A DNA stretch of 64,000 bases from Verrucomicrobiota bacterium (GCA_020831625.1 JAFIGD010000001.1:139296-203295); one strand, 5' to 3'; shown: positions 33,150 through 48,718, counted from the stretch's first letter. The notes: generated by a model from the sequence alone, not told the origin. Numbers and translations are program-made.

Positions 33150-35093
33150 TTACTTTTTCCTTACAGACAGGGTGTTTTTTCTTATGTTCAGTTTGGGCTT
33201 TATTGCAGCCCTGTAGGCTTGATCCACCCGATTAGGCTTGTCCGGATATTTCAGGAGCAACAGCCCATGCCGAACCATTGATGTTAAGAAACGTTGCCGC
33301 AAACCATCCGGATTTCGGTTTAACAGGGCAGCAATTTGGGATCTGGTCAACCAGTGTTCACTGCAAATACTTAAAATAATCCCTTCCATCTCCTTTGTTT
33401 CCAGTCGCTTGCAGGATCTGGAAACCTCCGCTAAATTATAGAGTTGCTCCAGTGTGCCTCCGTCCAAGTCTGGAAAAACAGTGGCAAGTTTGTTTATGAC
33501 CTCCTCTTGTATACGTACGGAGTGATCATCCTTACCTACGGAGTGATCGCCCTTACGTACGGAGTGATCGCCCTTACGTACGGAGTGATCGCCCTTATGT
33601 ACGGAGTGAATATCCTTGTGTGAGAAGTCAGTAACAGGCGTCAGTTTATACCTCGTCCATCTTCCCTGTCCTTGCTGTTGCAGAAACCCCTCACCTGTAA
33701 GCTTTTGTAGGAGCTGGGTCACATCAGATGCATGCAGCCGGGTAATTTGCCGCATGCGGGCGTTATCTACCCCCCCTTCTATATCCGCAGTCACCAAAAC
33801 TTCGACTTCTTGTTTCGTGCAACCGTCAAAGCGTTTGCCAAATTGCTTTTGCAGGCGGGATAAGGATTCCTCCGGTATGAGACTGACCATCGGCAATACC
33901 CACTCCACCCGATCAGGCTGTACAGTCTCCCGTACAGTTGGCGAGCGCCAGTGTTGTGATTCCCAACCACGGCGGATTTTATCAACACCGGATCCTGCCC
34001 GTTCCGCCAGACCCAACTGGGTAAACATTTTCTGCAAGGACTTATTACGGCACTCACTGACATTTCCACGCAGTAATTGATCCAATGAAATAAGCAACAT
34101 GCCAGGATTGGAGAAAACAAAACGATCCCGGTATTTCTCTATAACAATGCCGCCCTGTCCCTGATAATCGGCATGAATCAAGGCATTGACCAAAGCTTCA
34201 CGAATTGCCTCATGGACAACGCTCTCCCCTTTGCGAAAAAGATTCGCATCCAGTTGAAAAGGCAATTTAATGTCATCCGAAAGCCGCTGAACCACCCGCA
34301 AGTAAAACTGAAAAAGGTTCGGAGGCCATGTCCCGTCCATCATCAGCCTGTCCGTGTAACGGACATCAGGGTCATCGGAGAATTTTTCGCGGTAATCAAC
34401 ATGATAATCAGGAAGAGCCTCCGTTATCGTCTCCTCGCGCCCAAACATAAGAAGCCCGGCGATCGTCAGTCCTTCCTTCTCTGTTTTTCGATCCTGACGC
34501 CAACCGCCCAACTTTGATAACAGCCCTATATCATCTTCACTCAACCAGGGATGCGTTGGCTTATGTGAACCAAATCGCTGCCGGAACTGCTGTAAACTTT
34601 CCCGGTCAAGATCCTTGAGACCGAATCCTTCCAGAATTCGACTGTCTGCAGGTGCCTCCGCCCGGTCTGAAAGCATTCGCCCCACTTCCTGTTCCGTACA
34701 GTGATAGTCGCCTTCGTAATTCCTACGGTAGGTTCCTGTGAGCGGGTTTTGATCCAAATACACCGGACGTTGCTGTCGGGAGGCCCTGGGAATCCGAATC
34801 GCAAGAATATTCTTATCCTCAATCCGAACTTCCTCAACATCCACGTCCGTAAGCAGATTCAGGCTGACTTTGGACCGGTTATTTATCGTGTCCCAAAAAG
34901 ATTTCTTAAGTTTGGAAGTATTCTCAACCCCACATACATTTCCATTATCTTCAACACCCAACAGAACCACTCCACCATTGGAGTTTGCCAACGCACTGTA
35001 ACTCTCCCATAAACTTTTAGGCACACCGCCTTTGGCAGCCTTGAATTCCAAATCTTCACATTCCGTCCAATCAAGGCGACTGAGAAGGTCCAT
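33150..35093 (-). CDS. Schlafen-like ATP-binding protein, COG2865 type (AlbA_2 plus HATPase_c_4 plus C-terminal wHTH), inserted between mod and res
   Basis: Start chosen at the ATG at 35093 (MDLLSRLDWTECEDLEFKAAKGG). The HATPase_c_4 signature reads REALVNALIHADYQGQGGIVIEKYRDRFVFSNPG. It contains a 7-aa tandem repeat linker. It has lower G+C than res and the flanking mod segments. Confidence 0.7.
   Translation of the reverse strand: MDLLSRLDWTECEDLEFKAAKGGVPKSLWESYSALANSNGGVVLLGVEDNGNVCGVENTSKLKKSFWDTINNRSKVSLNLLTDVDVEEVRIEDKNILAIRIPRASRQQRPVYLDQNPLTGTYRRNYEGDYHCTEQEVGRMLSDRAEAPADSRILEGFGLKDLDRESLQQFRQRFGSHKPTHPWLSEDDIGLLSKLGGWRQDRKTEKEGLTIAGLLMFGREETITEALPDYHVDYREKFSDDPDVRYTDRLMMDGTWPPNLFQFYLRVVQRLSDDIKLPFQLDANLFRKGESVVHEAIREALVNALIHADYQGQGGIVIEKYRDRFVFSNPGMLLISLDQLLRGNVSECRNKSLQKMFTQLGLAERAGSGVDKIRRGWESQHWRSPTVRETVQPDRVEWVLPMVSLIPEESLSRLQKQFGKRFDGCTKQEVEVLVTADIEGGVDNARMRQITRLHASDVTQLLQKLTGEGFLQQQGQGRWTRYKLTPVTDFSHKDIHSVHKGDHSVRKGDHSVRKGDHSVGKDDHSVRIQEEVINKLATVFPDLDGGTLEQLYNLAEVSRSCKRLETKEMEGIILSICSEHWLTRSQIAALLNRNPDGLRQRFLTSMVRHGLLLLKYPDKPNRVDQAYRAAIKPKLNIRKNTLSVRKK
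33513..33617 (-). repeat. 21-bp tandem repeat, 5 copies, in frame within COG2865 gene 1; encodes (KGDHSVR)n
   Basis: Units ACGTACGGAGTGATCATCCTT / ACCTACGGAGTGATCGCCCTT x3 / ATGTACGGAGTGAATATCCTT were counted at 33513-33617. Confidence 0.85.
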
Positions 35094-35124
35094 TGGATTA
35101 AAATGAGTAGGCTTCGGCATCAGA

Positions 35125-36720
35125 CTACACCTCAATCGCATAAGGGGTTTGCTTGAACACGATTTGCTCCCGCTGCAGGGCGGAGGCCCCCAGGCGGCTG
35201 GCGGCCGCATATATCACCTTCGGCCCTTCATGAACCGGCAGCCCGTCCAGCACCGGACGCGTGAGAATATTGCCGCCCTGCGGACGCCGGTCACCCAGAA
35301 TCCCGTTGAACAGCAGATAAATCCCCCTTCCCTCATGCACCCCCAGCAACGGACTCGTCCCGTCGCCCGTGTACCCCAGACCCGTCTCCGAAAACCAGAC
35401 AAAATCCGCCAACTGCGCAAAGGTCACATCCTCCCGGATATCCCCGAACTCGTTGAACAGCGGCTCCCCGCTCAGACGGCAAAACTGAAATCCCCCGCCC
35501 AGCCCCGCCACCACCTTGCCCTTCGCGTCCGCATACCCCGCCGACACCCGCCGCACCCGCTCCGCCGTGATGTCCCGGGCAATGTTCTCCTCCATCTCCA
35601 CCAGAATGAATTTCCGCGTCCCCCCGTCCTCCGCATTCTGCTTCAACACCGCGTGCCCCGTCGTCCCGCTGCCGGCAAAACTATCCAAAATCATATCACC
35701 TTTGTCAGTCGCAATTTGAATAATGCGTTGAAGCAATCTAGTTGGTTTGGGGGTGTCAAAAGCTGTTTGTGTACCGAAAATCGCTCTAATCTCTTTCTTT
35801 GCCTCATCTGTATGACCTACTTCGTCATGCGGCCACCAAGTCCAAGGTACAAAACCCTCAACTTCTGACAAAAAGCGAATAATGCTTGGTTGTGAGTCGC
35901 CCTTCTTTCCGAAATAAATTCTACCCTCTGTCAGTAATTTTAGAAATTCACTTTCGATGGTTGACCAACAACGTCCTTCTGGCGGAATGATTTTTTTACC
36001 AGAAGGCGTTGTGATCTCGTACATTTGATTAGGCCTATAACCCTGTGCTGTCATGGGAATCCCACGCCATCGGCCTTTTGGATCATTATTTGGATTTTTG
36101 TAAACCTTGGCCTGTTTCTCGGTTAAAGGAACGAGATTCCTTGATTCTTGGAATTTTTTGGGGTTTGGAGCGTACACAAGCAAGTATTCATGTGCATCGC
36201 CGATGGAACCCCGATTTTCTCTAGAATAACGCTTTTGCCATGTATTACATGCAACGAATGAGGATAGCCCAAAGATTTCATCCATTAACGAGCGCAAGTT
36301 ATGGATCTCGGAATCATCCATTGAGATCCAAATAGATCCATCCGGCCGCAAAAACTGCTTCAGCAGCACCAGTCGCGGATACATCATGCAAAGCCACTTG
36401 TCATGACGGCAAAGATCCTCGGCCTCCTTGCCGACGGCTTCCCCCAGCCACTTTTTGATTTCCGGCGCGTTCGAGTTGTCGTTGTACACCCATCCCTCAT
36501 TCCCGGTGTTGTAGGGCGGATCGATGTAGATGCACTTCACCCGGCCCGCGTACTTCGGCAGCAGCGCCTTCAGCGCGTGCAGATTGTCCCCCTGCACAAT
36601 CAGGTTCCCGTCACGCCCCCCGCCCGCCGACAGCCCCGCATCCGGCTCCAGCAGCCGAAACGGCACCTCCTTGTGATGCCGAATCACCGCATCCTTCCCA
36701 ATCCAGTCCAGCGTCGGCAT
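35125..36720 (-). CDS. mod: Type III R-M Mod subunit (beta-class N6-adenine DNA methyltransferase) with a low-GC central target-recognition region
   Basis: Start at the ATG at 36720 (MPTLDWIGKD); the ORF-track start at 36738 is TTG. Motif IV reads IYIDPPYN (about aa 64-71) and motif I reads DSFAGSGTT (about aa 346-354). Nucleotides about 35690-36340 between them are visibly AT-rich. Confidence 0.85.
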   Translation of the reverse strand: MPTLDWIGKDAVIRHHKEVPFRLLEPDAGLSAGGGRDGNLIVQGDNLHALKALLPKYAGRVKCIYIDPPYNTGNEGWVYNDNSNAPEIKKWLGEAVGKEAEDLCRHDKWLCMMYPRLVLLKQFLRPDGSIWISMDDSEIHNLRSLMDEIFGLSSFVACNTWQKRYSRENRGSIGDAHEYLLVYAPNPKKFQESRNLVPLTEKQAKVYKNPNNDPKGRWRGIPMTAQGYRPNQMYEITTPSGKKIIPPEGRCWSTIESEFLKLLTEGRIYFGKKGDSQPSIIRFLSEVEGFVPWTWWPHDEVGHTDEAKKEIRAIFGTQTAFDTPKPTRLLQRIIQIATDKGDMILDSFAGSGTTGHAVLKQNAEDGGTRKFILVEMEENIARDITAERVRRVSAGYADAKGKVVAGLGGGFQFCRLSGEPLFNEFGDIREDVTFAQLADFVWFSETGLGYTGDGTSPLLGVHEGRGIYLLFNGILGDRRPQGGNILTRPVLDGLPVHEGPKVIYAAASRLGASALQREQIVFKQTPYAIEV

Positions 36721-36852
36721 CAGCAAGCCCCCCGGCAAACAGGAACCACCACAACATCACACCAAAAACGCATCAGATCACTCATTCCCCACTTCCTACC
36801 ACGCCCCCCGCCACCGGTCCAACCCCATTTTCAGATCACTCCGGGAAAAATG
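36660..36852. repeat. Copy A of an approximately 190-bp direct duplication covering the mod 5' end, start codon and upstream region
   Basis: Aligns, with substitutions and small indels, to 38847-39033. Both contain ...aatgccgaatcaccgcatc...cgtcggcatcag(c/t)aagccccccgg...aaaaacgcatca...ccacgccccc...ggtccaacc(c/t)cattttc...ccgggaaaaatg. Confidence 0.8.
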
Positions 36853-37372
36853 AGCCTGACTTCATTGTCACCCCTCATCCTCCGCACTTCCGTCATACAA
36901 AACCCGGCCGCTCAACTTGGAAACCATGATCAAACGGGAACTGCGAAGCATTGTACCGTCTTTTCCGTCATTCCAAGGCGAGAAAACGAACCACGATGGC
37001 TCAGAAGGCATATTATAGAGGCATATTTTTTCCGATAATGTACTCATGAGGGCTGGTGGAAGAGTGTAAACTCATTTTTATTCGCGGGTGTTTTGACAAA
37101 ACTGAATCATCCCCCTGCTGAAGTCAAGCAGGGAGGCACCTGAACAGAATCTAAAACACGCCGGAAAGGTATCAGGGTCCACCTGCCCGCAGTGCTGCGC
37201 ACAGCGTTGCAGGCGGGTCATCAGTGGTTTTCCCCAGTCGATCCGGTCGATCCCGGTAATCCCGTCAAAAATGCGCAGGACAGGCTTTGCTCCCTTCGCT
37301 CTCTTTGTTCTCTTTATCCTCTTCTGTAAAAATGATGAGATTTGCAGGTTCATCAGGTGAAAGGCCGCTTAA

Positions 37373-37431
37373 CTTGTTCAATTATTTTTCTTGTTCAATT
37401 ATTTTGAACAATGTATGATTCATGAACAATG
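37373..37431 (+). promoter_or_regulatory. Operator-like array of TTGTTCA / TGAACAA half-sites immediately upstream of, and overlapping, the start codon of CDS 37429
   Basis: TTGTTCAATTATTTT occurs twice (37375, 37392). There is a perfect inverted repeat TGTTCAA-ttatt-TTGAACA (37392-37410). TGAACAATG occurs twice (37405, 37423), the second containing the ATG. Confidence 0.4.
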
Positions 37432-38433
37432 AAACCTGAACACCAGTGGATTGCCCTGCGAAATGCCCTCATCGAACTTCCGGGGGAACCGATCTCGATT
37501 GACGAGAATCATTCTATTTTCACCTATCCCTCGGGCAAGGAAGTTGAATGGCGGTTTGGGGAAAAGCTAAGCACCCCATTTGTGGAGGGTTTGCTGAAGC
37601 ATAAGAGCAAAAAACCCTTGCTGCTGTTCTCACCTTACATCTCTCCCACCTTCGCGGAGCGGCTTCAGCGTAACGGGGTCTTTTTTGTGGATGAAACCGG
37701 GAATGCCTATCTTGAGTGGCCGGGGTATTATTTGTTTATCTCGCGGGACGTGCCAAAGAACTTGCGCCCCGGGAACAGTCAAAGAAAAGCGGGTAAGGAT
37801 TTTTCCCCCAGCGCACTCAAGCTGATCTATCTCTTTCTTACCGATACGAATAAGGGTGTCGGCGCGCGGGTGAATCATACCGTCCGACAATTAAATGCCG
37901 TCACGGGTATTTCCACCGGATCCATCAGCAACACCATGGACAGCCTGAAGGCGCAAAATTTTCTCGAAGAACGGGAGCCGGGAGTGCGGCGACTGGCCCA
38001 ACGGGAAAAATTGTTCGAACGCTGGGTGGAGGACTACACCCGCAAACTTCGGCCCAAACTGGTGGTGGAACACTACCGGCTCCCGCATCCCGGCTGGGCA
38101 AGTGAGCTGGTGCATACGGATGGCCCTGGCAAGTGGGGAGGCGAGGTGGCCGGGTCCAGACTCACCGGACATCTGGTGCCGGAAACCGTCACCCTTTACA
38201 CGGAAAATTTGCCGGCCAACTTTATTGTGAAAAATGACCTGCGCAAAGACCCGGCGGGGCGGGTGGAGATTCTGAGGCCCTTTACACCAATGGACCTGAC
38301 GGATCCAGCAGAGGCCTGTGTCCATCCTCTGCTCGTATATAGCGATCTCATGGCCTCCGAAATCGACCGCAACCTGGAAACCGCAAAACGGATTTATGAA
38401 AAATACCTTCGGCCTCTGGCAACATCCGATTGA
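37429..38433 (+). CDS. Low-GC hypothetical protein with a putative winged-helix segment (tentatively AbiEi-like antitoxin/regulator)
   Basis: 334 aa at about 50% G+C by eye. A candidate wHTH reads VRQLNAVTGISTGSISNTMDSLKAQNFLEE. It is preceded by the inverted-repeat operator. The family call is speculative. Confidence 0.4.
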   Translation: MKPEHQWIALRNALIELPGEPISIDENHSIFTYPSGKEVEWRFGEKLSTPFVEGLLKHKSKKPLLLFSPYISPTFAERLQRNGVFFVDETGNAYLEWPGYYLFISRDVPKNLRPGNSQRKAGKDFSPSALKLIYLFLTDTNKGVGARVNHTVRQLNAVTGISTGSISNTMDSLKAQNFLEEREPGVRRLAQREKLFERWVEDYTRKLRPKLVVEHYRLPHPGWASELVHTDGPGKWGGEVAGSRLTGHLVPETVTLYTENLPANFIVKNDLRKDPAGRVEILRPFTPMDLTDPAEACVHPLLVYSDLMASEIDRNLETAKRIYEKYLRPLATSD

Positions 38434-38836
38434 GAAAATAGTTTCCCTGCCCATGTTGGTCGTCCTGAAAATTGTGGCCGTGATGGACAGGGAACACGCC
38501 CGCCATAAAAAAGACGGTACCGATATTGCCTTCATTCTTGAAAACTACCTCAACGCGGGCAACGGTTTGCGTTTATTGGAGGGACCGAATGCGGATTTGA
38601 TGGCAGCTTGCGGCAATGATCTGGATGCCGCCACTGCGCGACTGTTGGGACGGGACATGGCCACGGAAATGCACCCGGACACCAGAAACCGCATTCGCAC
38701 ATATCTCGAGGAACAGGTGAAGAGTAGTGGGCGTTGTCACTTGGTTCATGGACTGATGGCTTCGTCCCGCTTCCCGACCTTCCCTGTTGCACGGGCTTGT
38801 CTGGGCAATGTACTTGCAGGGATAGAAAACATATGA
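38396..38836 (+). CDS. Low-GC small protein overlapping the previous CDS; KDGTDIAFIL motif reminiscent of the C-terminal region of AbiEii-type nucleotidyltransferases (tentative; possibly a frameshifted remnant)
   Basis: The ATG at 38396 lies inside the 3' end of the upstream CDS in another frame. The ORF track extends it to a GTG at 38318. It reads LKIVAVMDREHARHKKDGTDIAFILENYL. It is too short to contain an NTase fold. Confidence 0.3.
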   Translation: MKNTFGLWQHPIEKIVSLPMLVVLKIVAVMDREHARHKKDGTDIAFILENYLNAGNGLRLLEGPNADLMAACGNDLDAATARLLGRDMATEMHPDTRNRIRTYLEEQVKSSGRCHLVHGLMASSRFPTFPVARACLGNVLAGIENI

Positions 38837-38846
38837 TGAAAACCAA

Positions 38847-39033
38847 AACAGAACCTGCTGATAATGCCGAATCACCGCATCTTTGCCAATCCAGCGTCGG
38901 CATCAGTAAGCCCCCCGGAAAACCAGGCCCAATCCACCATCACAGCAAAAACGCATCACATCTCTCATCCCCCACTCCCTGCCACGCCCCCGCCCCCGGT
39001 CCAACCTCATTTTCTAACGACACCGGGAAAAAT
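38847..39033. repeat. Copy B of the mod 5' duplication, including a degenerate MPTLDW start-codon fragment (38858-38903, minus strand)
   Basis: Minus-strand atgccgacgctggattggcaaagatgcggtgattcggcat matches the mod start with a small deletion. It also drives the spurious ORF 38550..38903. Confidence 0.8.
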
Positions 39034-39059
39034 GTTGCTCCTTGGTAACAATTGTTACC

Positions 39060-39440
39060 GATTTAAGGAGTCCAACCCCATTTCCTGATCACTCCGGGAA
39101 AAATGAGTCGTTCCGACGCTCGAAAAAGGACCGGCATGATTTTCCGAACGTCGGAACGTTGGACTGGACCATTTCAAGGCTCGGAGGCAAAGCGGAAAAG
39201 CATCAGTGTCCACCTTCCCGCAGTGCTACGCGCAGCGTTGCAGGCGGGTCAGTGTCATCAGTGGTTTTCCCTCACCATACCTAAATCCCTTCCGCCCAGG
39301 CACAGAGGATAGGTATCAGTGTTCATCAGTGTCATCAGTGGTTTTTCTCCACCGCACCTTGCCCCTCCACCCAAGCACGGCGGACAGGTAGATATCCGTG
39401 TCCATCCGTGTCCATCCGTGGTTCTATTCTTCCGTGCCCC
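39060..39440. repeat. Mosaic of short interspersed repeat families X, Y, Z and W in non-coding DNA downstream of the 128-aa ORF
   Basis: X element: ccaaccccatttcctgatcactccgggaaaaatgag (also at about 36815 and about 39000). Y element: palindromic hairpin gttccgacgctcg...cgtcggaac (39098-39148; also 46662-46710 and 61985-62035). Z element: cccgcagtgctacgcgcagcgttgcaggcgggtca...tcagtggttttcc (also about 37180-37235). W elements: two units of cacRgMggaYaggtatcagtg...atcagtggttttt, the same family as the 52745-53455 array. Confidence 0.8.
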
Positions 39441-39448
39441 GGGTTCCC

Positions 39449-39835
39449 TCATCCTCCCGCATTCTCCGCGATCACCCGCTCCAGCTCCTCGATCATCTTC
39501 ACGAGGTCGCTCAAATAGATCGCCTCGGCCATGGGCTTGCCGTCGCTTTGATCCCGAAGCGGCACGAAAAATCCGTCCCGCCATTGCTTGCATTTCGCAA
39601 CCAGGGCGTCGTGCGCCAGCGCCCTCGCGGCGGTTTCGTCCAGCAGACGCATGATTTCCCGCAAAATGAATTGCGTCACCGCCCCTTTCTGCGCGAGCAG
39701 GGTGCGGATCTCGGGATCGAGGCCGGCGGAGCGCGCGTCGAGTTCCCGGTTGAGTTCCCCCAGAATTTCCGTGGCCGTGTCCAAGGCATGGCTGCTGGTT
39801 TTGGGTTTATTCGCCACTTTATTCGCCTTGGACAT
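39449..39835 (-). CDS. Small hypothetical protein (128 aa) overlapping the 3' end of the giant ATPase gene by 17 nt
   Basis: ATG at 39835. No motif was recognised. It is helical and charged. Confidence 0.45.
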   Translation of the reverse strand: MSKANKVANKPKTSSHALDTATEILGELNRELDARSAGLDPEIRTLLAQKGAVTQFILREIMRLLDETAARALAHDALVAKCKQWRDGFFVPLRDQSDGKPMAEAIYLSDLVKMIEELERVIAENAGG

Positions 39836-42800
39836 GACCGCCCCCCTGTCCGAGTTCGTCGATCAAAACGCGGTACGCCCCCCGGGCCCGCCGCAGACGT
39901 TCCTGCAAGTGCTCGGGATCGCTTTCCCCTTCGTGATGCAGACTCTCCTGCAGGCGCTCGAACTGCTGCTCCAGCAACAGCGACAGCTTGGAGGCCCCCG
40001 CCGGTTTTTCCGCTTTCGCCGCCACTTCCGGGGGCCGCGCTCTGGCGAGAATATCCTCCAGCCGGTCCAGGGTGTCCGCGCCGAGAACCGTTTCCACCGG
40101 ACCCGCGGGCGCTTTGCCGCCCACGCCCTGCTTCAGCACGTCGCGAATTTCGTGCAGACCCTCGCCCAGTCCGGAAAGCTGGGCCACCGCCTGCCCCACC
40201 CGGTCGTCCTCTCCGGCGCCGCGCAACAACTGATTGCGGGCGTAGGAGCGTTTGATTTCCGCCCACCGGGCCTGTTCTTCTTCGGTGGCCAAGTCGAGGA
40301 TCAACCTGAATTTCAGCAGGTTGGCCTCCGCGCCGGTCGTGAGCGTCTGGGCTTCGTTGGTGTATTCGGAATAAATCGTGGTTTCCAGTTCCCGCTCGTT
40401 CATCACCGCCTCCACCTTCTCGGCGAGACGGTTCATGTTGCGGTAGGACCCCTGCAGCTTGAAAGCCGGTTCGGTGCGGAACTCGTCCGCCTGCCCGGCG
40501 CTGCGGATGTATTCCTCGTTCACGCGCAGGACCACGTCCCGGATGCGAATCATCTTTTCCATCACCGAAATAATTTCCTGCAGCTCGCCCGCGGAATAGT
40601 TGCCTTCCAGCTCCACCCCTTCGCGGGACCCGGTTTCGGCGATGCGGATGACCGAATAAATGTCTTTCTTGCTGCCGGAGGACAGCCGGTTCAGGGCCGG
40701 ATTCGAGGTGAGCGCGTTTTCGAGGAAGCTGAGCTTGAACACGTCGCCGTTGTCCCCGAGAATGTCCCCGAGGTTATAGGTGTCGGCGCGGTTGGCGAGC
40801 ATGTCGGGGATACGGAATTTCTCCCCGCTTTCGGTGTAGGGGTTCCCGGCCATGACCACAGACACTTTTTTGCCGCGCAGGTCGTAGGTTTTCGTGTTCC
40901 CTTTGTACACACCCTCGATTTTGCGCTGCGCATCGCACAGCGAAATGAATTTCTGCAGAAACTCGGGATTGCAGTGCTGGATGTCATCGAGATAAATCAT
41001 CACGTTGTCGCCCATTTCCAACGCCAGCCCCAGCTTGTGCAGCTCCTCGCGGGCGGCGGCGTTGGGCGCTTCACTCGGATCGAGCGATGTGACGTGATGC
41101 CCGATGGCGGGTCCGTTGATTTTCATAAACACCACGCCCAATCGGTTGGCGACGTATTCCATCAGCGTGGTTTTCCCGTACCCGGGCGGGGAAATGAGCA
41201 TCAACATGCCGCTGCGGTCAGTACGGGTGTTGTGACCCGCCACCCCGATCTGCTTGGCGAGGTTGTCGCCGATCAGCGGCAGGTACACGCGGTCGATGAG
41301 CCGGTTGCGCACAAAGGAGGTCATCACCCTGGGCTTGAATTCGTCCAGACGCATTTCCTTGCGGGTCCGCTCCAGAAATTCCTTTTTCATGCGGCCGAAG
41401 GCCTCGAAACGGGGCACGGATTCGCGCACAAAGCGGTCCAGCCGCAACACGAATTCGTTGTACCGCAGTTCCAACCGACCCTCCTGCAATCGGCGGTGCG
41501 CCCCGCGCAGTCCCCCGATCTCCCGGCGGGTCCCCAGTTCGGAAACGCGGGCGGGCGCATAGGCCTCGGCGAACACCAGCGCCGCCGCCTCGTCCAGTCC
41601 TTCGGCCCATTCCCCGTTGGGCTTGCTTTCCAGATAACCGCGCATCCATTCACGGATCAGGCCATATTCCGCCACCGGACGGCTTCGGACCTTTTCCCGC
41701 GCCTCGTCGAACGCTTTTTGACCCGCGAGCTTCTTGAGATGCGCCTGAAACGCCTTGATCAGCGCCCCGGCTTCGGGGCTGATGGGATGCTCGCCCTCCC
41801 CGGTTTCCACGTCGAACAGATACGTCGCAGCAGTCTCCGCCAGCCGGGGATCAAACCAGGGGACGGATTCCGCGAACGCGGCGATGCGGTCCCGCAATTC
41901 GCTCAGCGCGTCGTCCTGACGCCGCTGCTGACGGAAGACTTTGTTGGAGGCGGCCATGCCCTGCAAACGGGCCTGCATGATCTCAAAGGCCTCGTCCTGT
42001 TTGAACCCGGTCCAGAACACCAGCGCCAGCGCCCGGGCGGAGGTGTGCGCCCGCAGCAGACCCAGCGAAAAATGCATTTCCAAAAGCGCCTTGAGGATTT
42101 TCCCGGCATCCTCGTCATGCACCCCCTTTTGATAGCCCTCGGCATAGCGGGGCGCCATAAAGGTCTGCACCTTCTGAATCAGCGCGGGCTCCTCCAGCTC
42201 CGCGTCCTCGGGTCGGGCATCCGCCAAGAGGCGATATGCCAGATATTCGGCCCGATAGACCTCCGCATCCTCTGAAATCAGATCCTGGGACCACACGGAG
42301 CGGGTTTCGAGAAACGCGGAATCGGTGATGGCTTCGAAAAAATTGGTGCCGGTCAGGTGCATCATCATCTGATCGCCGCGCGGCACGATGGTGAGGTCCA
42401 GCGCCTGGGTGTTCACCGAGAACTGATGCCGCCCGAATTTGATGATGTTTTCCCCGCCCACGAACAACTCGGATCGGTCATGCAACTGCCGCACCCCCTC
42501 CTCGCGGGCGCTCTTGAGCTTGGTCTCAATGTCCCCGGCTTTCACCGGATCATCCAGTTCCTTGAGCTGATCCACAATCCCGCGCAGCTTCTCAATCATC
42601 AAATCGGAGGCGAAGTAGCCGTTGATCTCCTCCACGGTTTTCATCGCGTCCACGCGACCCTTGACGCTGTTGAGAATGCGTTCCGCGCTGCGCTGCAGCG
42701 TGTCGGCCCGTTTGTTGCGCGCCTCCACCAGCGACAGACGGCGGGTTTCGAAGGCGTTGTACACTTCCTCCCGCTTTTCGGAGAGCTTGGCCACATAGTC

Positions 42801-45017
42801 GTCGAAATCGGAGAATTTCCCCTCCAGTTCCTCCAACTGAATCATCACCCGTCCCAAATAGCTCTCGCATTTTTCCGGGGAATCACAGACATCCAGATAA
42901 TTAATCACCGCCTGGGACAGCAGCTTCATTTGCGAGGCGAACTCGGCTGAGCCCTCCACCTGGGCCAAATCCCGGATCTTGTTGGTCAGCGCCGCCCGGG
43001 CCTGATTGATCCCGGAAAACAGCGCCGAAATTCCGTCAATGATCCGGGTGCGCTGGGTGGCGTCGTCGATTTTCAGATTGCTGACGATTTCGATGAGCAT
43101 TTCCAGTTCGCCGCTGACCGCCTCGATTTCCTCCTTGAGTTCCTCCCCGTCCTTCACCTTGTCGAGTTTGGCGATGCGCGGTTCCAGGCCTTCAATCTTC
43201 TTCGCGTACGGGGTCATGGCATCGTCGCGCAGCAGGAAATCCACGCATCGCCGGGCCTGACGCTCCGTATGCTCGCGCACCGTTTTTTCCAGCTCATCCA
43301 CCCTCGCCCCGTCCATATAGCGCAGCTCGCGCAGGGAAATCACCTTGCCCCGCAAAGCCCGCAGGCCGGAGAGGGTGTCCACGTGGCCGTTGATGTCGTC
43401 GTGACGCCGCAGACGGATTTCGTTCAGAAGATCCCGGGTTTCTTTTTCCGCCTCCTTGAGCCGCGACGCGGCCGCGTTTTGCAACTGCACCACCTTCTCG
43501 TACTCGTCAATGGCGGCGGCGGCGGCCTCTTTGATTTTCTCCAGCGGCTCGCCCGGATCAAACGCAGCAGACTCGCGGATCCAGAAAAAACTGTCCAGCA
43601 AATCGGTGGATTGACGTGAAACATCCACATACAGATTCGCGTAATTGTCCTCGCGGTTGAGCAGACCCAGCAGTGTCTGACAGCCCGCCATACAGCGGAC
43701 AATATCGCGGTTGCCGATTTTAAAGAGCATCGAATCCTTGTGTTCGGTCACCGCCTCCGCCGTGGCCGAATACGGGGTTTGCCAGACCTGCACCACATGC
43801 GATTTGGTGTGCTCTTCCTGGGCCTTGAAATACATCAGCTCCCCGTCTTTAAAGAGACTGTAGCCGTGGCAGTCGATGGGGGTCTCCACGGTCTGGCTGA
43901 TCAAATTGTAGGAGAGCAGTCCATAGGTCCCGTTTTCACGGTTGTAGAAAATAAACAGGGTGTCCTCACCGTTCGGCGAGGCCACGCGCCGCTCGAAAAG
44001 CATATCGCTGTTGGCGCTGTCGAACTGTTTGTATTCACCGGTCTGGAGATAATAGCCGTTGGGGAAAATAATCCCGTGGTCCTCGGGCAGCAGCACGCAG
44101 GCTCCGGCGATGGCGTCCATGCGCCGCGCCTCGCGGACCTTTTCGCTGTACACGAAATAGCGGAATTTGCTTTCGCGGTAGGGTTTGATTTTCATCAAAA
44201 TCAAATTGCCCACGGAGGCGAAATGAAATTCCGCGTCGTCCAGGGTTTGATCCGGATCCTCCACCGCCTCGGTATAAATCCCCTCGCCGCTGGTCGTGTT
44301 GTCCTCGATCTTGATGGTCAAATTGCCGCCCATGGTTTCCACGAACACCCGGTCCTGGAACGAAATGTGGGGGAATTCGCCGCTGCGCTGCATGTCGCGG
44401 GTGGCCCGCACCCACTCGAACTCGTGCTGGGACGGAAACCGGTATTCATGATCGCTGCGGTTGTCCACATACGTGAACGACCCGTCATCCCCGCGCAGCC
44501 ACTTAAAACACTTCACATCCTTCACGTCCTTGCCCACACGGAACACCATGAAAATATGAGGCCCCACCCGCATGAACTTGGAGAAACGCGTATTCTTGTA
44601 GTATTTGTACAGCTCCGAAAAATCGCGGGCAAACCCCGGATCGTTTAGCAGATCCAGCGTGTCTTCGGTCAGTTTGTGATCCTCAAAGCGATAGACCGCG
44701 AACACATCCTCCGGGGTCATCTCCCTGCGGAGGCCCAGTTGCACATTATAGCCGAAGAGCATTTTCGAGCCCACCGCCACCATGTCGCGCGGCACGCAGT
44801 TGTTGGCCGTCAGCACCCGCTCCGTGCCCACCAGTTTTGGTTCCACGGAGCCGAACACATCACGGCGGGCCGCATTCAGCTTGTCCACCCGCTCCTGCAG
44901 CGCCTCGCCATGCCCCCGCAGACGGCGGCGGATGATCTCATACGCGCCCCCCTCAAACACCGGAGCCTCCGCGCCCGCTTTTTGTTCGTCAGTAACGTTG
45001 GATTTGGAATCAGTCAT
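39819..45017 (-). CDS. Giant (1732 aa) protein with a C-terminal AAA+ ATPase domain (MoxR/McrB-like arrangement); N-terminal roughly 1270 aa unknown and partly coiled-coil
   Basis: Walker A reads LISPPGYGKTTLMEY (about aa 1273-1287, nt about 41160-41200). Walker B reads NVMIYLDDIQH. The sensor region reads VSVVMAGNPYTESGEKFRIPDMLANRADTY (compare MoxR ATQNP...PEAQLDRF and McrB GTMNtaDrs...ALrRRF). It starts 29 nt after COG2865 gene 2. Confidence 0.7.
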   Translation of the reverse strand: MTDSKSNVTDEQKAGAEAPVFEGGAYEIIRRRLRGHGEALQERVDKLNAARRDVFGSVEPKLVGTERVLTANNCVPRDMVAVGSKMLFGYNVQLGLRREMTPEDVFAVYRFEDHKLTEDTLDLLNDPGFARDFSELYKYYKNTRFSKFMRVGPHIFMVFRVGKDVKDVKCFKWLRGDDGSFTYVDNRSDHEYRFPSQHEFEWVRATRDMQRSGEFPHISFQDRVFVETMGGNLTIKIEDNTTSGEGIYTEAVEDPDQTLDDAEFHFASVGNLILMKIKPYRESKFRYFVYSEKVREARRMDAIAGACVLLPEDHGIIFPNGYYLQTGEYKQFDSANSDMLFERRVASPNGEDTLFIFYNRENGTYGLLSYNLISQTVETPIDCHGYSLFKDGELMYFKAQEEHTKSHVVQVWQTPYSATAEAVTEHKDSMLFKIGNRDIVRCMAGCQTLLGLLNREDNYANLYVDVSRQSTDLLDSFFWIRESAAFDPGEPLEKIKEAAAAAIDEYEKVVQLQNAAASRLKEAEKETRDLLNEIRLRRHDDINGHVDTLSGLRALRGKVISLRELRYMDGARVDELEKTVREHTERQARRCVDFLLRDDAMTPYAKKIEGLEPRIAKLDKVKDGEELKEEIEAVSGELEMLIEIVSNLKIDDATQRTRIIDGISALFSGINQARAALTNKIRDLAQVEGSAEFASQMKLLSQAVINYLDVCDSPEKCESYLGRVMIQLEELEGKFSDFDDYVAKLSEKREEVYNAFETRRLSLVEARNKRADTLQRSAERILNSVKGRVDAMKTVEEINGYFASDLMIEKLRGIVDQLKELDDPVKAGDIETKLKSAREEGVRQLHDRSELFVGGENIIKFGRHQFSVNTQALDLTIVPRGDQMMMHLTGTNFFEAITDSAFLETRSVWSQDLISEDAEVYRAEYLAYRLLADARPEDAELEEPALIQKVQTFMAPRYAEGYQKGVHDEDAGKILKALLEMHFSLGLLRAHTSARALALVFWTGFKQDEAFEIMQARLQGMAASNKVFRQQRRQDDALSELRDRIAAFAESVPWFDPRLAETAATYLFDVETGEGEHPISPEAGALIKAFQAHLKKLAGQKAFDEAREKVRSRPVAEYGLIREWMRGYLESKPNGEWAEGLDEAAALVFAEAYAPARVSELGTRREIGGLRGAHRRLQEGRLELRYNEFVLRLDRFVRESVPRFEAFGRMKKEFLERTRKEMRLDEFKPRVMTSFVRNRLIDRVYLPLIGDNLAKQIGVAGHNTRTDRSGMLMLISPPGYGKTTLMEYVANRLGVVFMKINGPAIGHHVTSLDPSEAPNAAAREELHKLGLALEMGDNVMIYLDDIQHCNPEFLQKFISLCDAQRKIEGVYKGNTKTYDLRGKKVSVVMAGNPYTESGEKFRIPDMLANRADTYNLGDILGDNGDVFKLSFLENALTSNPALNRLSSGSKKDIYSVIRIAETGSREGVELEGNYSAGELQEIISVMEKMIRIRDVVLRVNEEYIRSAGQADEFRTEPAFKLQGSYRNMNRLAEKVEAVMNERELETTIYSEYTNEAQTLTTGAEANLLKFRLILDLATEEEQARWAEIKRSYARNQLLRGAGEDDRVGQAVAQLSGLGEGLHEIRDVLKQGVGGKAPAGPVETVLGADTLDRLEDILARARPPEVAAKAEKPAGASKLSLLLEQQFERLQESLHHEGESDPEHLQERLRRARGAYRVLIDELGQGGGHVQGE

Positions 45018-45046
45018 GAGATTAAAAGGTATTTAGGTTATTTTAT

Positions 45047-46555
45047 TCAGGATTCGATAAATTCGAGTCCCTGGGACGTAAGGCGATATTTTTGTAAAGG
45101 ACTTTTCGGTTTTTCCGGAAGCGTCATTTCCACCAAGCCGCATTCAAGCAACGGGATCAAATGCCGTTTATAGTTTAAATAAGCATTGGCCATCCCTATA
45201 GAGTGAAACAATTCAGCTTTGTTTTTCGCTCCTGATTTCATTTCACGAAGCAACTTGTACCCCTGCTTACTCACTTGCTCACCAGCTTGCTCACCAGCTT
45301 GCTCACCAGCTTGCGTATTCTTTTTACGGTTTCGATCAGACACATTCGTTTCCTGATTTGTTTTCGATCCTTCTTTTTGCGACAGGCGACTCTGTTCCGG
45401 CATCAGGGTTAAAGCATTTTTTAAGAAGACGGTAACCCGAACCCGATTAGCCAGTTCTCTTATTTCAGGGTCCTTCAGCCCCAGATTTTCCGCCTCGCGG
45501 AATATACCGGGAATGCCGCTGCCCCATTGCTCAATAAAATCGAGTTCCTTAAACACACGTGCAATCACCGGATTCCTGATCTGAGAAACACCAAGTTTCA
45601 AATCCTCCGGTCGCAGACCCGGCAATAAAAGTCCGGGATTCTCAACTTCAATCCGATCATCATAAAACGCAACACGAACGGGTGTGCCTGTATGGGAATA
45701 ATCCGCATGAACCAAAGCATTGATCACAACCTCACGAAGAATGTTTATGGGAATACTCCAAAGATCTTTCCTGCGAACATCCGAGAAATCAGCCCCGCGC
45801 ATAGCGTGTTTCTTTAAAAACAACATGATTTCCGCCACAGATTTGGGCATGGGGTCATTGATTTCAATGTGATCAAAAATCACAGCTTTGTCCTGCCCCA
45901 TAAAACGGCCGCACTGTATCCATGCGTCGTCAAAATAACGGCGGCGGTTGAGTCCGTACAGCAAAAACCCGCCATGGCTGGGAACCAATTTCCCCTGATG
46001 AAGCACAAGGATTTTAAGACTTTGCATTTTCAGTTCATCAATGATTACGGTTGAAAAATCCTCCCGGATTCTTTCCAGATCCAAATCCTCAACTCCGAAT
46101 TGAGGCATCGGTAACGCATCAAAGCTTACACCTGCCGAACCTCTTTCCAGTTCTGAGATCAGCCGGGTGTCCGCCTGGCGGTTCGTGGCGCCTAACCTGA
46201 CATAAACCCCTTTTTCCATCCCTTCACTTTTTAAGTAATGCGGTCGCGTGTTGCTGGGAAAAACCTCAAGCAATAAAAGCGTTTTCCCGTTTACAGTGGT
46301 TAATTCGATATTTGGCACCAGGTGAGGGGCTATACAATCTGAAATTAAATTGCTGATTCGCTCCACTTCTCCCAGTGGATCTTGAACGCCCACCACATTA
46401 CCGTGATCATCCAGACCGACGATCACCCGCCCCCCGGCAGAATTAGCAAAAGCCACCAGTGTTTTCATCAGGGGTTTAGGTGAAGAAAGGTCACGCTTGA
46501 ACTCAAGCGTTTTACTCTCAGGATCCTTTAAAAGTTCTGGTATGGACAGGGACAT
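45047..46555 (-). CDS. Schlafen-like ATP-binding protein, COG2865 type (AlbA_2 plus HATPase_c_4 plus wHTH), paralog 2
   Basis: Start chosen at the ATG at 46555 (MSLSIPELLKDPESKTLEFKRD); the ORF-track start at 46600 is GTG. It reads LREVVINALVHADYSHTGTPVRVAFYDDRIEVENPG. It contains an (AGEQ)3 repeat linker. Confidence 0.7.
   Translation of the reverse strand: MSLSIPELLKDPESKTLEFKRDLSSPKPLMKTLVAFANSAGGRVIVGLDDHGNVVGVQDPLGEVERISNLISDCIAPHLVPNIELTTVNGKTLLLLEVFPSNTRPHYLKSEGMEKGVYVRLGATNRQADTRLISELERGSAGVSFDALPMPQFGVEDLDLERIREDFSTVIIDELKMQSLKILVLHQGKLVPSHGGFLLYGLNRRRYFDDAWIQCGRFMGQDKAVIFDHIEINDPMPKSVAEIMLFLKKHAMRGADFSDVRRKDLWSIPINILREVVINALVHADYSHTGTPVRVAFYDDRIEVENPGLLLPGLRPEDLKLGVSQIRNPVIARVFKELDFIEQWGSGIPGIFREAENLGLKDPEIRELANRVRVTVFLKNALTLMPEQSRLSQKEGSKTNQETNVSDRNRKKNTQAGEQAGEQAGEQVSKQGYKLLREMKSGAKNKAELFHSIGMANAYLNYKRHLIPLLECGLVEMTLPEKPKSPLQKYRLTSQGLEFIES
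45267..45314 (-). repeat. 12-bp tandem repeat (caccagcttgct, about 3.7 copies), in frame in COG2865 gene 2; encodes (AGEQ)n
   Basis: cacttgct caccagcttgct caccagcttgct caccagcttgcg, read at 45271-45314. Confidence 0.8.
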
Positions 46556-46661
46556 TTGAGGTACTTGGGTGAAGGATTTTCCTAAAGAACAAGAATGCAC
46601 ATTATTCCAAAAAAATAAGCGTTCACGTAATCATAAATCAGCAATTCGTTTCTTAAAAGTG

Positions 46662-46710
46662 TTTCCGACGCTCGGAAAGGATGTGCCTCCATTTTCCGAG
46701 CGTCGGAACG
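46662..46710 (-). terminator. Palindromic Y-family hairpin immediately downstream of the flotillin stop; candidate terminator
   Basis: ttccgacgctcgg / ccgagcgtcggaa is a perfect 13-bp stem with a 17-nt loop. On the minus strand it is followed by ACACTTTTAAG. Confidence 0.4.
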
Positions 46711-46717
46711 GATCAGT

Positions 46718-48715
46718 TCAGGCCTTCGCGGCTTTGACTTTTCCCAGCAGTTCGGACACGTCCCTGCCGCCGAGGTTGAGCTTCCCGGCCACGTCGCTGA
46801 GGCGGTCGAGCGTCGAGAGGGTCTTCTCGTCGTCGGTCATCGCCGACATGCGGGCGAGCAGGGCGGAGACGCTGATGTTCTTCAGATCCTCGCTGCTCAT
46901 CCCGAAACGGCCGGCGAAGGTCCGCAACTGGCTGGTGAAGGCCTCGGGATCGCCGCTGAACAGCGTGTTGCTCACGTCGGTGAGCAGACGGCTGTTGTCC
47001 ATCAGGCTGTCCAGCGATTTGCCGTTGCTGACCGAATTGACGATCTTCTCGAAGAAGGTCGATTCGCCGCCGACAATGTCGATGTTGGCGCTCTTGAGCG
47101 CCTCGCCCACCAGGGCGGACTGCTCGCGGGCGATATCGCGGCTGACGTTGACGGCCGCAAGCTGCAGCTCGAGGTCTTTGTTGAGCCGGAGTTTGAACTC
47201 CTCGTGCTCGCGTCCCACTCCGTCGAAGAGCTTCATCGCTTCGGCTTTCTTCTCGATGCCCTGGGCTTCGGCAAAGGCCTTTTCCTGAACCACCTTCGCT
47301 TCGGCGCGGCCGAATTTCTCGCTCGCTTCGGCCTTGGCCTCCAGCACCCGGGCCTCGCCCATGCCGATGACCGCCTCCTCCTGCGCCTTGGCGTCGGCCA
47401 GGATCTTGCGGGCGTCCGCTTCGCGTTCGGACGCATCGCGCGCCGCCTGCGCCTCGATCACCCGCTCTTCCGCCGCATGTTTGGCGGCGTCGCGCAGCGC
47501 TTCGGCCGCGAGCACCTTGCGGATCTTTTCGGCCTCGCCCGACTCGCGGGCGTTGGTTTCCGCCACCTGACGCGCACGCTCGGCGGTCGCGAATTCCTGA
47601 GTGTCCTTGATCTTTTCCTGCTCTTCGACCACGGTGCGCTCCACCGCGACCCGCTCGCGAATGACCTCCTGGATGTTTTTCTTTTCAACCTCCAGGGCCT
47701 TCTCTTTTTCGATTTCCTGCAGTTCAACCACCCGTTCGCGCTCCACGCGCTCCAGGCCGCGGTCTTTCTCCACCCGCTCGGTTTCCACCGCTTCGGTGCG
47801 CTCTTTGTTCTTTTGCGCCACGATGATCTGCCGCATGCGGTTCTCTTCCGCCACCGCGACCTCCTCGGCAGTCTGAATGCGCACCCGCTCGGAGCGGAGC
47901 CGCTCCTCCTCCTGCACCACTTTGGACTGCGCCTCCTCGCGGGCGGTGATCTCGGCGATCTCCCGGAGCTGCTTCTGCTCCGCGTCCGCCTGCTGACGCT
48001 CCAGTTCCAGGATGGCCTCGCGGGCCTCCACGTCCTGCTTCTTGATCGTCTTTTCTTTGTTGCGGTTGATGTGGTTGGCCAGAATCGCCTGATTCGCGGT
48101 CAGCTCCACAATCTTCTTAATCCCCTCGGAATCAAGAATGTTGTTGGGATCCAGCTCCGCGAGCTTGGTCTGCTCCAGATAGTCGATCGCCGCGTCGTCG
48201 AGCACATACCCGTTCAGGTCGGTACCGATGACTTTGAGGATCTCCTCCTTGAACTGCTCCCGGTTGGTGTACAGATCCACAAAGTTGAACTGCTTGCCGA
48301 CCGTTTTCAGCGCCTCGGAGAACTTCGCGTCAAAGAACGCCACCAGCTCGCGCGGATCCGATCCGCGTTTGCAGCCCAGAGACTGGGCAACCTTGAGCAC
48401 GTCCTGCGGGGTCTTGTTCACCCGCACGAAGAAGGCCACCTTCACGTCCGCGCGCAGATTGTCTTTGCAGATCAGTCCGTCGCTGCCGTCGCGGTTGATT
48501 TCGATACGCTTTACCGAAATGTCCATCAGCTCCATGCGCTGCAGCACGGGAATGATGAGCATGCCGATGAAGCTCACTTTGGTGCCGCCGATGCCGTTCC
48601 GGATAATGGCGGTACTTTGCTCCACCTTCTTGTAGCAGGCGGAATAGAGGAAAAACAGGCCCGCGAGGATGATGCCCAGCACCATAAACGCAGCCGTGAT
48701 AATTTGTGCAATCAT
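46718..48715 (-). CDS. Flotillin / SPFH (band 7) family protein with a long Glu/Ala-rich coiled coil (YqiK/FloT-like)
   Basis: 665 aa with an N-terminal TM and an SPFH core (TAIIRNGIGGTKVSFIGMLIIPVLQRMELMDISVKRIEI...), then EA-repeat coiled coils. Confidence 0.8.
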   Translation of the reverse strand: MIAQIITAAFMVLGIILAGLFFLYSACYKKVEQSTAIIRNGIGGTKVSFIGMLIIPVLQRMELMDISVKRIEINRDGSDGLICKDNLRADVKVAFFVRVNKTPQDVLKVAQSLGCKRGSDPRELVAFFDAKFSEALKTVGKQFNFVDLYTNREQFKEEILKVIGTDLNGYVLDDAAIDYLEQTKLAELDPNNILDSEGIKKIVELTANQAILANHINRNKEKTIKKQDVEAREAILELERQQADAEQKQLREIAEITAREEAQSKVVQEEERLRSERVRIQTAEEVAVAEENRMRQIIVAQKNKERTEAVETERVEKDRGLERVERERVVELQEIEKEKALEVEKKNIQEVIRERVAVERTVVEEQEKIKDTQEFATAERARQVAETNARESGEAEKIRKVLAAEALRDAAKHAAEERVIEAQAARDASEREADARKILADAKAQEEAVIGMGEARVLEAKAEASEKFGRAEAKVVQEKAFAEAQGIEKKAEAMKLFDGVGREHEEFKLRLNKDLELQLAAVNVSRDIAREQSALVGEALKSANIDIVGGESTFFEKIVNSVSNGKSLDSLMDNSRLLTDVSNTLFSGDPEAFTSQLRTFAGRFGMSSEDLKNISVSALLARMSAMTDDEKTLSTLDRLSDVAGKLNLGGRDVSELLGKVKAAKA

Positions 48716-48718
48716 GTC

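Follow-up and report, generated by a model that had tools for sequence, protein, structure and literature searches.

Restriction-modification (RM) genes have been found between long direct duplications of their targets, an arrangement described as insertion with long target duplication (ILTD), and because the repeats often span a translation start, the target gene survives the event (Furuta et al. 2010, PMC2853133). Allelic RM systems have also been described (PMC2853133). AbiE systems can stabilise the DNA that bears them, and the toxicity of their AbiEii component requires its nucleotidyltransferase (NTase) motifs (Dy et al. 2014, PMC3985639). Here we describe a locus from a Verrucomicrobiota bacterium (GCA_020831625.1, JAFIGD010000001.1:139296-203295; the whole stretch of 64,000 nt is referred to as the window, and positions are counted from its first letter) in which an AbiE cassette lies between two copies of the 5’ end and upstream region of mod, a Type III RM methyltransferase gene. 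We conclude that the structure is a scar left by old recombination in a phage-defence island and does not mark an active site of insertion, and we tentatively favour an origin of the second copy as the remnant of a displaced mod allele.

When positions 36301-39600 were compared with the entire window by blastn, a direct repeat on the same strand was found between 36655-36852 and 38843-39034, with 160 matches over 198 columns (80.8% identity, 6 gap columns, E 1.3e-47); repeat-finding in the window returns the same pair as families D1, D2 and D6. A first-pass annotation of this DNA had reported a contiguous duplication of ~190 bp including the mod start codon and upstream sequence, with a degenerate MPTLDW start in the second copy, and both claims hold, apart from coordinates that were off by 1-5 nt. 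Copy 1 (36655-36852, minus strand) comprises mod codons 1-22 (36655-36720) and 132 nt of upstream sequence (36721-36852), while copy 2 (38843-39034, minus strand) begins 6 nt past the abiEii stop codon and comprises a mod 5’ stub (38843-38903) followed by 131 nt of upstream region (38904-39034). The coding piece aligns with 52 matches, 9 mismatches and one 5-nt gap, and the 132 nt upstream of the mod start with 108 matches, 23 mismatches and 1 gap. Read on the minus strand, copy 2 starts with the same ATGCCGACGCTGGA as copy 1 and, after a 5-nt deletion, continues with TTGGCAAAGATGCGGTGATTCGGCAT. With the frame restored it carries H16Y, K17Q, E18Q, P20L and R22W, at which positions copy 1 agrees with the mod gene of a relative, L088 (see below). 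Because of the deletion, the five amino acid changes and the loss of similarity to mod after codon 22, copy 2 is a dead stub of 22 codons with ~130 bp of upstream DNA. The stub carries no annotation in the GenBank record. Copy 1, on the other hand, is the functional 5’ end of an intact gene (35125-36720, minus strand, 531 aa; Pfam N6_N4_Mtase, E 4e-41) that forms a Type III RM operon with res (PADLOC MTase_III, E 6e-202; REase_III, E 3e-119).

We give next to no credence to the idea that the similarity arose by chance, through membership in a dispersed repeat family or from misassembly. X-family repeats and REP-like hairpins are indeed present in the intergenic region and elsewhere in the window. 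The ~190-bp block, however, occurs in the window just twice, with a recognisable mod start codon inside it and a blastn E value of 1e-47, and its similarity is contiguous across that start codon and not confined to the X-family repeat, as copies of the latter at 52745-53428 match only 39249-39423. The locus is also found on contig JAIUMJ010000005.1 of GCA_022565545.1 (Verrucomicrobia bacterium; its closest relatives carry the labels Kiritimatiellia or PVC group), and three Logan unitigs (SRR13748697) tile it, two at 100% identity (33568-38022 and 37994-39421; L005 and L098) and one at 99.96% (39395-49835; L003), the latter with 4 mismatches to the window, none of them near the repeats. These unitigs recur in 3-6 samples, the two identical ones in 5-6. 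Every repeat copy and every junction lies inside a single unitig, and the explanation by chance, dispersal or misassembly is refuted.

The same unitigs bear on whether the cassette can leave. Precise excision by homologous recombination between the copies had been proposed by the first-pass annotation. Excision of this kind, if it were to be efficient, is possible on paper but finds no support in the data: the longest in-register exact run is 18 nt, and the independent Logan unitigs contain no hybrid, recombinant or excised junction and no break within the repeats. As all unitig breaks fall outside the repeats, nothing points to recombinant or excised forms, and with 81% identity and exact runs of no more than 18 nt, deletion of the cassette via the copies should be rare.

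By its predicted products, the cassette between the copies is an AbiE type IV toxin-antitoxin and abortive-infection system in decay. Two overlapping, low-GC open reading frames (ORFs) were correctly noted there earlier (37429-38433 and 38396-38836, plus strand; GC 0.52-0.54 vs 0.604 for the window); they overlap by 38 nt and are bicistronic. The first, abiEi, encodes an intact type IV antitoxin and transcriptional regulator of 334 aa, the length of all its relatives at 79-87% identity, with an AbiEi_2 domain at residues 188-327 (Pfam E 2.7e-29) and, as its winged helix, a MarR_2 match at residues 150-188 (E 1e-4, under Pfam’s own cut-off). The second is a remnant of the toxin gene abiEii, encoding 146 aa with a native C-terminus and stop. 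Alignment to relatives of 284-300 aa, which are encoded downstream of AbiEi and match PF08843 AbiEii weakly, places an in-frame deletion at residues 14-151 (junction 6931/7343 relative to L090, another relative), and the part lost is the NTase domain. The remnant itself has no Pfam match, and an intact NTase toxin is not found here; the GenBank record lists the remnant as a hypothetical protein. As NTase motifs are needed for toxicity and the NTase domain is deleted, the product should be non-toxic, and the AbiE of the window should be neither toxic nor protective. A promoter and operator region precedes abiEi at 37358-37428 (plus strand), its first base being the conserved left end of the cassette; half-sites TTGTTCA (two, direct) and TGAACAA (two, inverted) at 37375-37429, where there is also a 17-nt direct repeat, are conserved in all relatives. 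Most likely, mod uses copy 1, abiEi is autoregulated from its own predicted operator, and the toxin is dead.

Loss of abiEii has taken three forms: the in-frame deletion in the window (38396-38836), a premature stop with 3’ truncation in L088 (10001-10725), and loss of the N-terminus in L086 (1497-2009). As abiEi is full-length in both the window and L088, the toxin seems to have been lost repeatedly while the regulator was kept.

The duplication extends beyond what the first-pass annotation had reported. A second collinear block, 37162-37234 against 39193-39271, is found by blastn at 84.8% identity (79 columns, E 2e-19), and a global alignment of 36640-37260 with 38830-39300 defines two collinear units. 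Unit 1 consists of the mod 5’ end, the upstream region, an element D2 (36817-36854, the distal 38 nt of copy 1), a unique 309-nt spacer (36855-37161, GC 0.47) and R2a (37162-37236), an X-family repeat unit with a 36-nt GC-rich insertion. Unit 2 consists of the stub, the upstream region, D2’ (38999-39034), a 35-nt spacer with a palindrome, D2’’ (39070-39107), 85 nt with a hairpin, and R2b (39193-39273), the partner of R2a, which runs straight into an X-family array. The units differ at 32 substituted positions within the 198 columns of the repeat, and in a gap of 5 nt, a D2-plus-palindrome block of 71 nt, wholly different spacers (309 vs 85 nt) and a 6-nt gap in R2, where R2a and R2b match at 67 of 75 positions, gaps excluded (89%; the X arrays were compared by eye). 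The spacer of unit 1 stands where unit 2 has 158 nt (39035-39192) and has no significant similarity to unit 2, L088 or the rest of the window. D2 occurs three times at the locus and nowhere else in the window (2 matches vs 0 expected when up to three mismatches are allowed); D2’’ is identical to the D2 of copy 1 at 36 of 38 positions (94.7%, blastn), while D2’, within copy 2, matches it at only 30 of 36. The longest exact run common to both units is 21 nt (D2 vs D2’’), compared with 18 nt in register. Finally, the 121 nt (37237-37357) that separate R2a from the cassette’s conserved left end are unassigned; they were considered as a degenerate X unit or as spacer of the L088 or L090 kind and rejected, local alignment with X units, the L088 spacer and the L090 flank scoring no better than shuffles.

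Comparison with relatives shows the AbiE cassette to be a discrete module that occurs in multiple contexts (L088, L089, L090/91, L092-95, L096 and L103 were compared), with unrelated flanks. At the nucleotide level, the relatives become similar to the window ~55-72 nt ahead of the abiEi ATG, at 37357-37375 (37357/8 for L088 and L090/L091, and 37368-37375 for L089, L092-095, L096 and L103), and the similarity stops at or just before the abiEii stop. In L088, a 108-kb ENA contig that is 83-88% identical to the window (83-87% at the nucleotide level), res, a 105-aa gene and mod lie on one strand and are followed by abiEi-abiEii on the other; the left end of the cassette falls at the identical base and the mod-abiEi spacer is 243 bp. 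In L090 both AbiE genes are intact (86-92% nucleotide identity to the window), and 2.1 kb to their left, beyond three unrelated genes, lies a 69-nt fragment of mod codons 6-28 (87% identity) in the same orientation. L086 has just remnants of both AbiE genes. A second mod copy to the right of the cassette is present in neither L088 nor L090, but in L088 abiEii has a premature stop and its 3’ end and right flank are deleted. We take the position of mod left of this AbiE cassette to be, most likely, an ancestral linkage, and the mod 5’ region is a site where scars recur.

Relative to L088 as the outgroup, the two copies in the window are sisters, with 41 shared-derived sites in the upstream region. 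They differ from each other by ~0.17, as against 0.25-0.34 between the window and L088, and 0.28 between the window and L006, the nearest species representative, at four-fold degenerate (neutral) sites. Because L088 and L090 carry mod or its stub by the cassette, and because the copies are sisters less diverged than the window is from L088, the adjacency of mod and AbiE most likely predates the split of the two copies. The split is itself old, amounting to about 0.6 of the distance that separates the window from the closest species with a sequence. L006 was the best of 80 loci in a contig scan with the C-terminus of the DUF3686 protein encoded to the right of the locus as query and 10-kb flanks (88% amino acid identity), and has no RM island downstream; a metagenome scan with AbiEi gave a single locus, L089, without mod. 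Exact-protein look-ups with AbiEi, Mod, the 146-aa remnant and the 128-aa protein encoded beyond unit 2 returned only GCA_022565545.1 and Logan unitigs of the same population. An empty site with a single copy was not found in the contig scan, the metagenome scan or the look-ups, L006 lacking the island and L088 its right flank. Likewise, no intact second mod allele matching copy 2 was found in the relatives searched, and a search with the Mod N-terminus could not trace the source of copy 2 because this 150-aa region is too conserved, being 71-83% identical across many phyla.

Of the explanations considered, we lean, with some reserve, towards copy 2 being the 5’ remnant of a second, diverged mod allele that was displaced when a related island with RM and AbiE genes recombined into the locus. 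It would be an allele of the same Type III mod gene and would have been present either as the former resident or as a tandem paralogue. The incoming segment would have carried res, the AlbA_2-domain gene that lies between mod and res, mod itself, the upstream unit 1 and AbiE, and would have become fixed while the resident gene body was overwritten or deleted; copy 1 would be the 5’ end and promoter region of the incoming, functional mod. The left end of the exchange would be homologous, somewhere within the RM genes, and the right end an illegitimate join, 6 nt beyond the abiEii stop, into codon 22 of the resident mod. This could have happened by homology-facilitated illegitimate recombination (HFIR), a mechanism reportedly set out by de Vries and Wackernagel in 2002, or equivalently by tandem acquisition followed by deletion. 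From the sequence alone, we infer the order of events, the donor and recipient roles and the illegitimate nature of the junction.

Several observations are accommodated by such a displacement. Copy 2 is a pseudogene stub, altered at positions where copy 1 and L088 agree; the mod-AbiE adjacency is most likely older than the split of the copies; and no integrase, transposase or tRNA gene is located within ~10 kb. Both units have the same order and yet are diverged, as one would expect of a single intergenic region present as two alleles. Since L088 and L090 show mod or a stub left of the cassette, AbiE was most likely carried along with mod and the upstream unit of mod, and not inserted here on its own. 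The copy-1 side looks foreign, with a GC content of 0.427 in the central recognition domain of mod (35755-36267) and of 0.485 in the AlbA_2 gene, which fits an imported island with a new specificity. In nucleotide sequence, this domain of mod shows no similarity to its L088 counterpart, while the 5’ and 3’ parts on either side of it are 83-88% identical, and it looks like a swap of the target-recognition domain. Identical repeats of 430-580 bp are expected to be lost quickly by recombination. Copies that had already diverged when they were brought together would explain the survival of the structure, as repeats 17% diverged at the outset, with exact runs of at most 18 nt, are stable from the start. 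We prefer displacement to duplication in situ on these grounds, that is, a single event, arrival of AbiE together with mod, stable repeats and foreign-looking DNA, although the preference is a tentative one.

At the same time, some findings weigh against a displaced allele or fail to help it. L006 lacks the entire island. A rare R2 variant of a host-type X-family repeat is present in both units at 89% identity, for which duplication within a single genome is the simplest explanation. That the illegitimate junction lies no more than 6 nt from where abiEii naturally ends is a coincidence here, as it is under most of the rival explanations. Derived changes polarised by L088 do not separate the models either, being 12 in copy 1 vs 5 in copy 2 for the upstream region and 3 vs 7 for the coding piece, all small counts.

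The strongest competitor, which we regard as possible but less likely, is duplication in situ of the ILTD type. On this account the native order was mod, upstream region, D2, spacer, R2, X, X and the 128-aa gene, and one duplicative event placed the 121-nt segment and AbiE between two identical copies of 430-580 bp. The duplicated interval would run from mod codon 22 to R2, leaving mod intact; the copies would then have drifted to 81-89% identity, with addiction to AbiE opposing loss of the cassette through them until the toxin died. The geometry is exactly the one reported for RM genes that were inserted with long direct duplications of the target and in the absence of mobility genes (Furuta et al. 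2010, PMC2853133), and the locus has direct repeats longer than 30 bp, no mobility genes and an insert of ~1.6-2.0 kb, well inside the 20-kb limit. The common R2 variant and the collinear units follow naturally, the right junction lies at the natural end of the cassette, and AbiE, which stabilises DNA carrying it (Dy et al. 2014, PMC3985639), could have shielded the repeats from recombinational loss.

The history of the linkage speaks against it. Mod or its stub is already left of the cassette in L088 and L090, and the copies are younger than the split between the window and L088, so that AbiE seems to have been next to mod before the copies arose, in which case insertion of the cassette did not create them. 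The first-pass annotation had read the structure as an insertion that duplicated its target; a low-GC two-gene cassette flanked by a ~190-bp repeat is certainly there, but a recent duplication by this insertion is not supported, given L088, L090 and the sister relationship of the copies. A plain tandem duplication, moreover, would give two copies of AbiE and require a second, precise deletion. Perfect repeats of ~500 bp, being unstable, would have had to last until ~17% divergence, for which sustained selection would be needed, such as AbiE addiction before the death of the toxin. Published ILTD repeats are mostly more than 90% identical and each has an empty site in another genome, and none was found for the window; near-identity is also missing here (81-89%, with unrelated spacers), which could reflect age and so weakens the case without excluding it. 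Finally, the 121 nt at 37237-37357 belong to neither the conserved cassette nor the target.

In a broader version of duplication in situ, which strikes us as improbable, AbiE cassettes would move by the ILTD route proposed for selfish RM genes and might land preferentially in Type III mod genes, at their conserved 5’ end and upstream region. The stub in the window and the 69-nt stub in L090 might then be footprints of repeated events, and the leftover promoter might transcribe antisense into abiE.

A role for that promoter can also be imagined under any origin of copy 2: it may have been kept because it is active, and would then tune the expression of AbiE or mod, either by driving antisense transcription across abiEii and abiEi or by drawing off a regulator of mod as a decoy. 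Copy 2 does point into the 3’ end of abiEii, its upstream region is no more decayed than that of copy 1 (5 vs 12 derived changes relative to L088), and D2 is present three times with a perfect palindrome beside copy 2. However, the asymmetry of 12 vs 5 is not significant, a consensus promoter scan gave weak matches only and was uninformative for the mod upstream region, and relatives with the same cassette do without such a copy. Nor does any Rfam family match within 36400-39700 at E up to 1, a range that includes the array at 39249-39423 as the sole X copy searched. We consider retention for promoter activity quite unlikely; most likely, the repeat has no specific function today.

A further origin to be considered is a site-specific integrative element that carried AbiE and had the copies as its attL/attR-like sites, an att-like pair having been the other suggestion of the first-pass annotation. 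In its favour, direct repeats do flank a discrete cassette of lower GC content. Yet the repeats are ~190-500 bp long and 81% identical, without an in-register identical core of more than 18 nt, and the same cassette is found in at least six other contexts without such repeats. No integrase, recombinase or transposase is present among the called genes at 27.4-49.8 kb of the window (Pfam lists), that is, within ~10 kb, and the window has no tRNA genes. With neither recombinase nor tRNA gene nor identical core, and with the cassette elsewhere free of repeats, the suggestion falls, and we think it very unlikely indeed. No inverted repeats bracketing the cassette were found and there is no transposase, so that it does not have the make-up of a transposon with target-site duplications (TSDs). 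An origin from a mobile element was rejected in addition, since neither viral contigs (by protein and DNA pattern) nor plasmids (in distant blastn) gave a match.

The sequence around the second unit contains a number of further features. The 35-nt spacer between its two D2 copies holds a perfect 16-nt palindrome, GGTAACAATTGTTACC (39044-39059), whose AACAA/TTGTT core is also that of the half-sites in the abiEi operator. A REP-like hairpin (39109-39158, minus strand; 19-bp stem, RNA fold z = -3.1) consists of an inverted repeat followed by ACUCAUUUUU on the minus strand; it has a sister at 46663-46710 (blastn to 46663-46718), just 3’ of another minus-strand gene, and a third copy in L090 (135-181), which suggests a related host. 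As each window copy with its T-run sits downstream of a minus-strand gene or operon, these hairpins are probably intrinsic terminators, that at 39109-39158 probably serving the operon of the DUF3686 and 128-aa genes. The X-family array at 39249-39423 ends 26 nt before the stop of the 128-aa gene (39449-39835, minus strand) and matches 52745-53428 by blastn; both arrays lie just downstream of genes and are built of units of ~68-77 nt with internal 9-10 nt sub-repeats resembling ATCAGTGTC. On the other side of the cassette, a 91-aa ORF (37078-37353, minus strand), listed in the GenBank record as a gene for a hypothetical protein, was set aside as probably spurious: it has no family match, spans R2a and the unassigned 121 nt, and its frame has a stop codon in R2b (read by eye from the sequence).

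Farther out, the gene between mod and res (33150-35120, minus strand, GC 0.485) has SLFN/AlbA_2 and HATPase_c_4 domains. The order mod, small ORF, AlbA_2/HATPase_c_4 gene, res is also seen in L100 (2693-4159) and L102 (5292-6758), which represent a distant Type III system (77-78% nucleotide identity for mod, 70% for res), whereas L088 has a 105-aa gene at the AlbA_2 position; the mod-AlbA_2-res arrangement may be a recurrent three-gene variant of Type III RM. Within the AlbA_2 gene, a 21-nt tandem repeat of 4.7 copies (33512-33609) encodes KGDHSVR-like heptads, with one unit more in the window than in GCA_022565545.1; across 21 kb the two otherwise differ by just 4 mismatches. To the right of the locus, a conserved minus-strand cluster (39449-49000) encodes a PspA_IM30 protein, a YqiJ_N protein, a 665-aa coiled-coil protein, an AlbA_2/HATPase_c_4/Fic-like_C protein, a 1732-aa DUF3686/AAA ATPase, 93% identical to that of L006, a metagenome-assembled genome from the PVC group, and the 128-aa protein. 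Two candidate slippage-prone tracts were seen elsewhere in the window, a poly-C tract of ~30 nt (5081-5112) in a putative plus-strand ORF (4970-5758) and 18 copies of the 7-nt repeat TCACTCG (8419-8547) in a putative ORF from the six-frame list.

The locus offers a datable example of defence-island turnover, in which Type III RM and AbiE genes travel together and the 5’ stub of a gene persists with its promoter as a scar, while the toxin decays and the antitoxin-regulator persists. Should duplication in situ prove true, ILTD would take in abortive-infection and toxin-antitoxin cassettes in addition to RM genes, and would reach into the PVC superphylum. The practical value lies mainly in annotation (the 146-aa remnant, the 91-aa ORF and the mod stub) and in the caution that repeats of this kind are not att sites. 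General interest is low, as this is ordinary island turnover, and the locus is best taken as a worked example.

Set beside described systems, the locus has in common with attL/attR pairs and transposon TSDs direct repeats on either side of an insert, but it differs from them in having no recombinase, tRNA gene, identical core or terminal inverted repeats, and its repeats are far too long and too diverged. Like characterised AbiE systems (Dy et al. 2014, PMC3985639; Beck et al. 2020, PMC7319586), the cassette is an overlapping bicistronic pair, with an AbiEi_2-family antitoxin followed by an AbiEii-like NTase toxin; it lies in a defence island and has repeated half-sites in its promoter, predicted operator elements that resemble the inverted repeats bound by AbiEi. 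It departs from them in its toxin, which is without residues 14-151 (the NTase domain), and the antitoxin is of the Pfam AbiEi_2 type whereas that of the studied S. agalactiae AbiE is of the AbiEi_4 type. With allelic RM substitution (PMC2853133) and HFIR scars, our preferred reading shares the replacement of one island allele by another at a fixed chromosomal locus, one homologous and one illegitimate junction, and a truncated 5’ end at the border; here, however, the displaced allele is seen intact nowhere, and the donor and recipient roles come from sequence geometry only. With ILTD (Nobusato et al. 2000, Gene 259:99; Furuta, Abe & Kobayashi 2010, PMC2853133) the locus shares a small selfish cassette, the lack of a transposase or integrase, long direct repeats, a repeat that spans a translation start, an intact neighbouring gene and the setting of an RM locus. 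It differs in that the insert is an AbiE toxin-antitoxin cassette and not RM genes, the repeats are 81-89% identical, as opposed to mostly >90% in published cases, and are interrupted by unrelated spacers, and relatives suggest that the cassette adjoined mod before the copies split. The structure is of a known kind, a scar of defence-island turnover with the geometry of a long target duplication.

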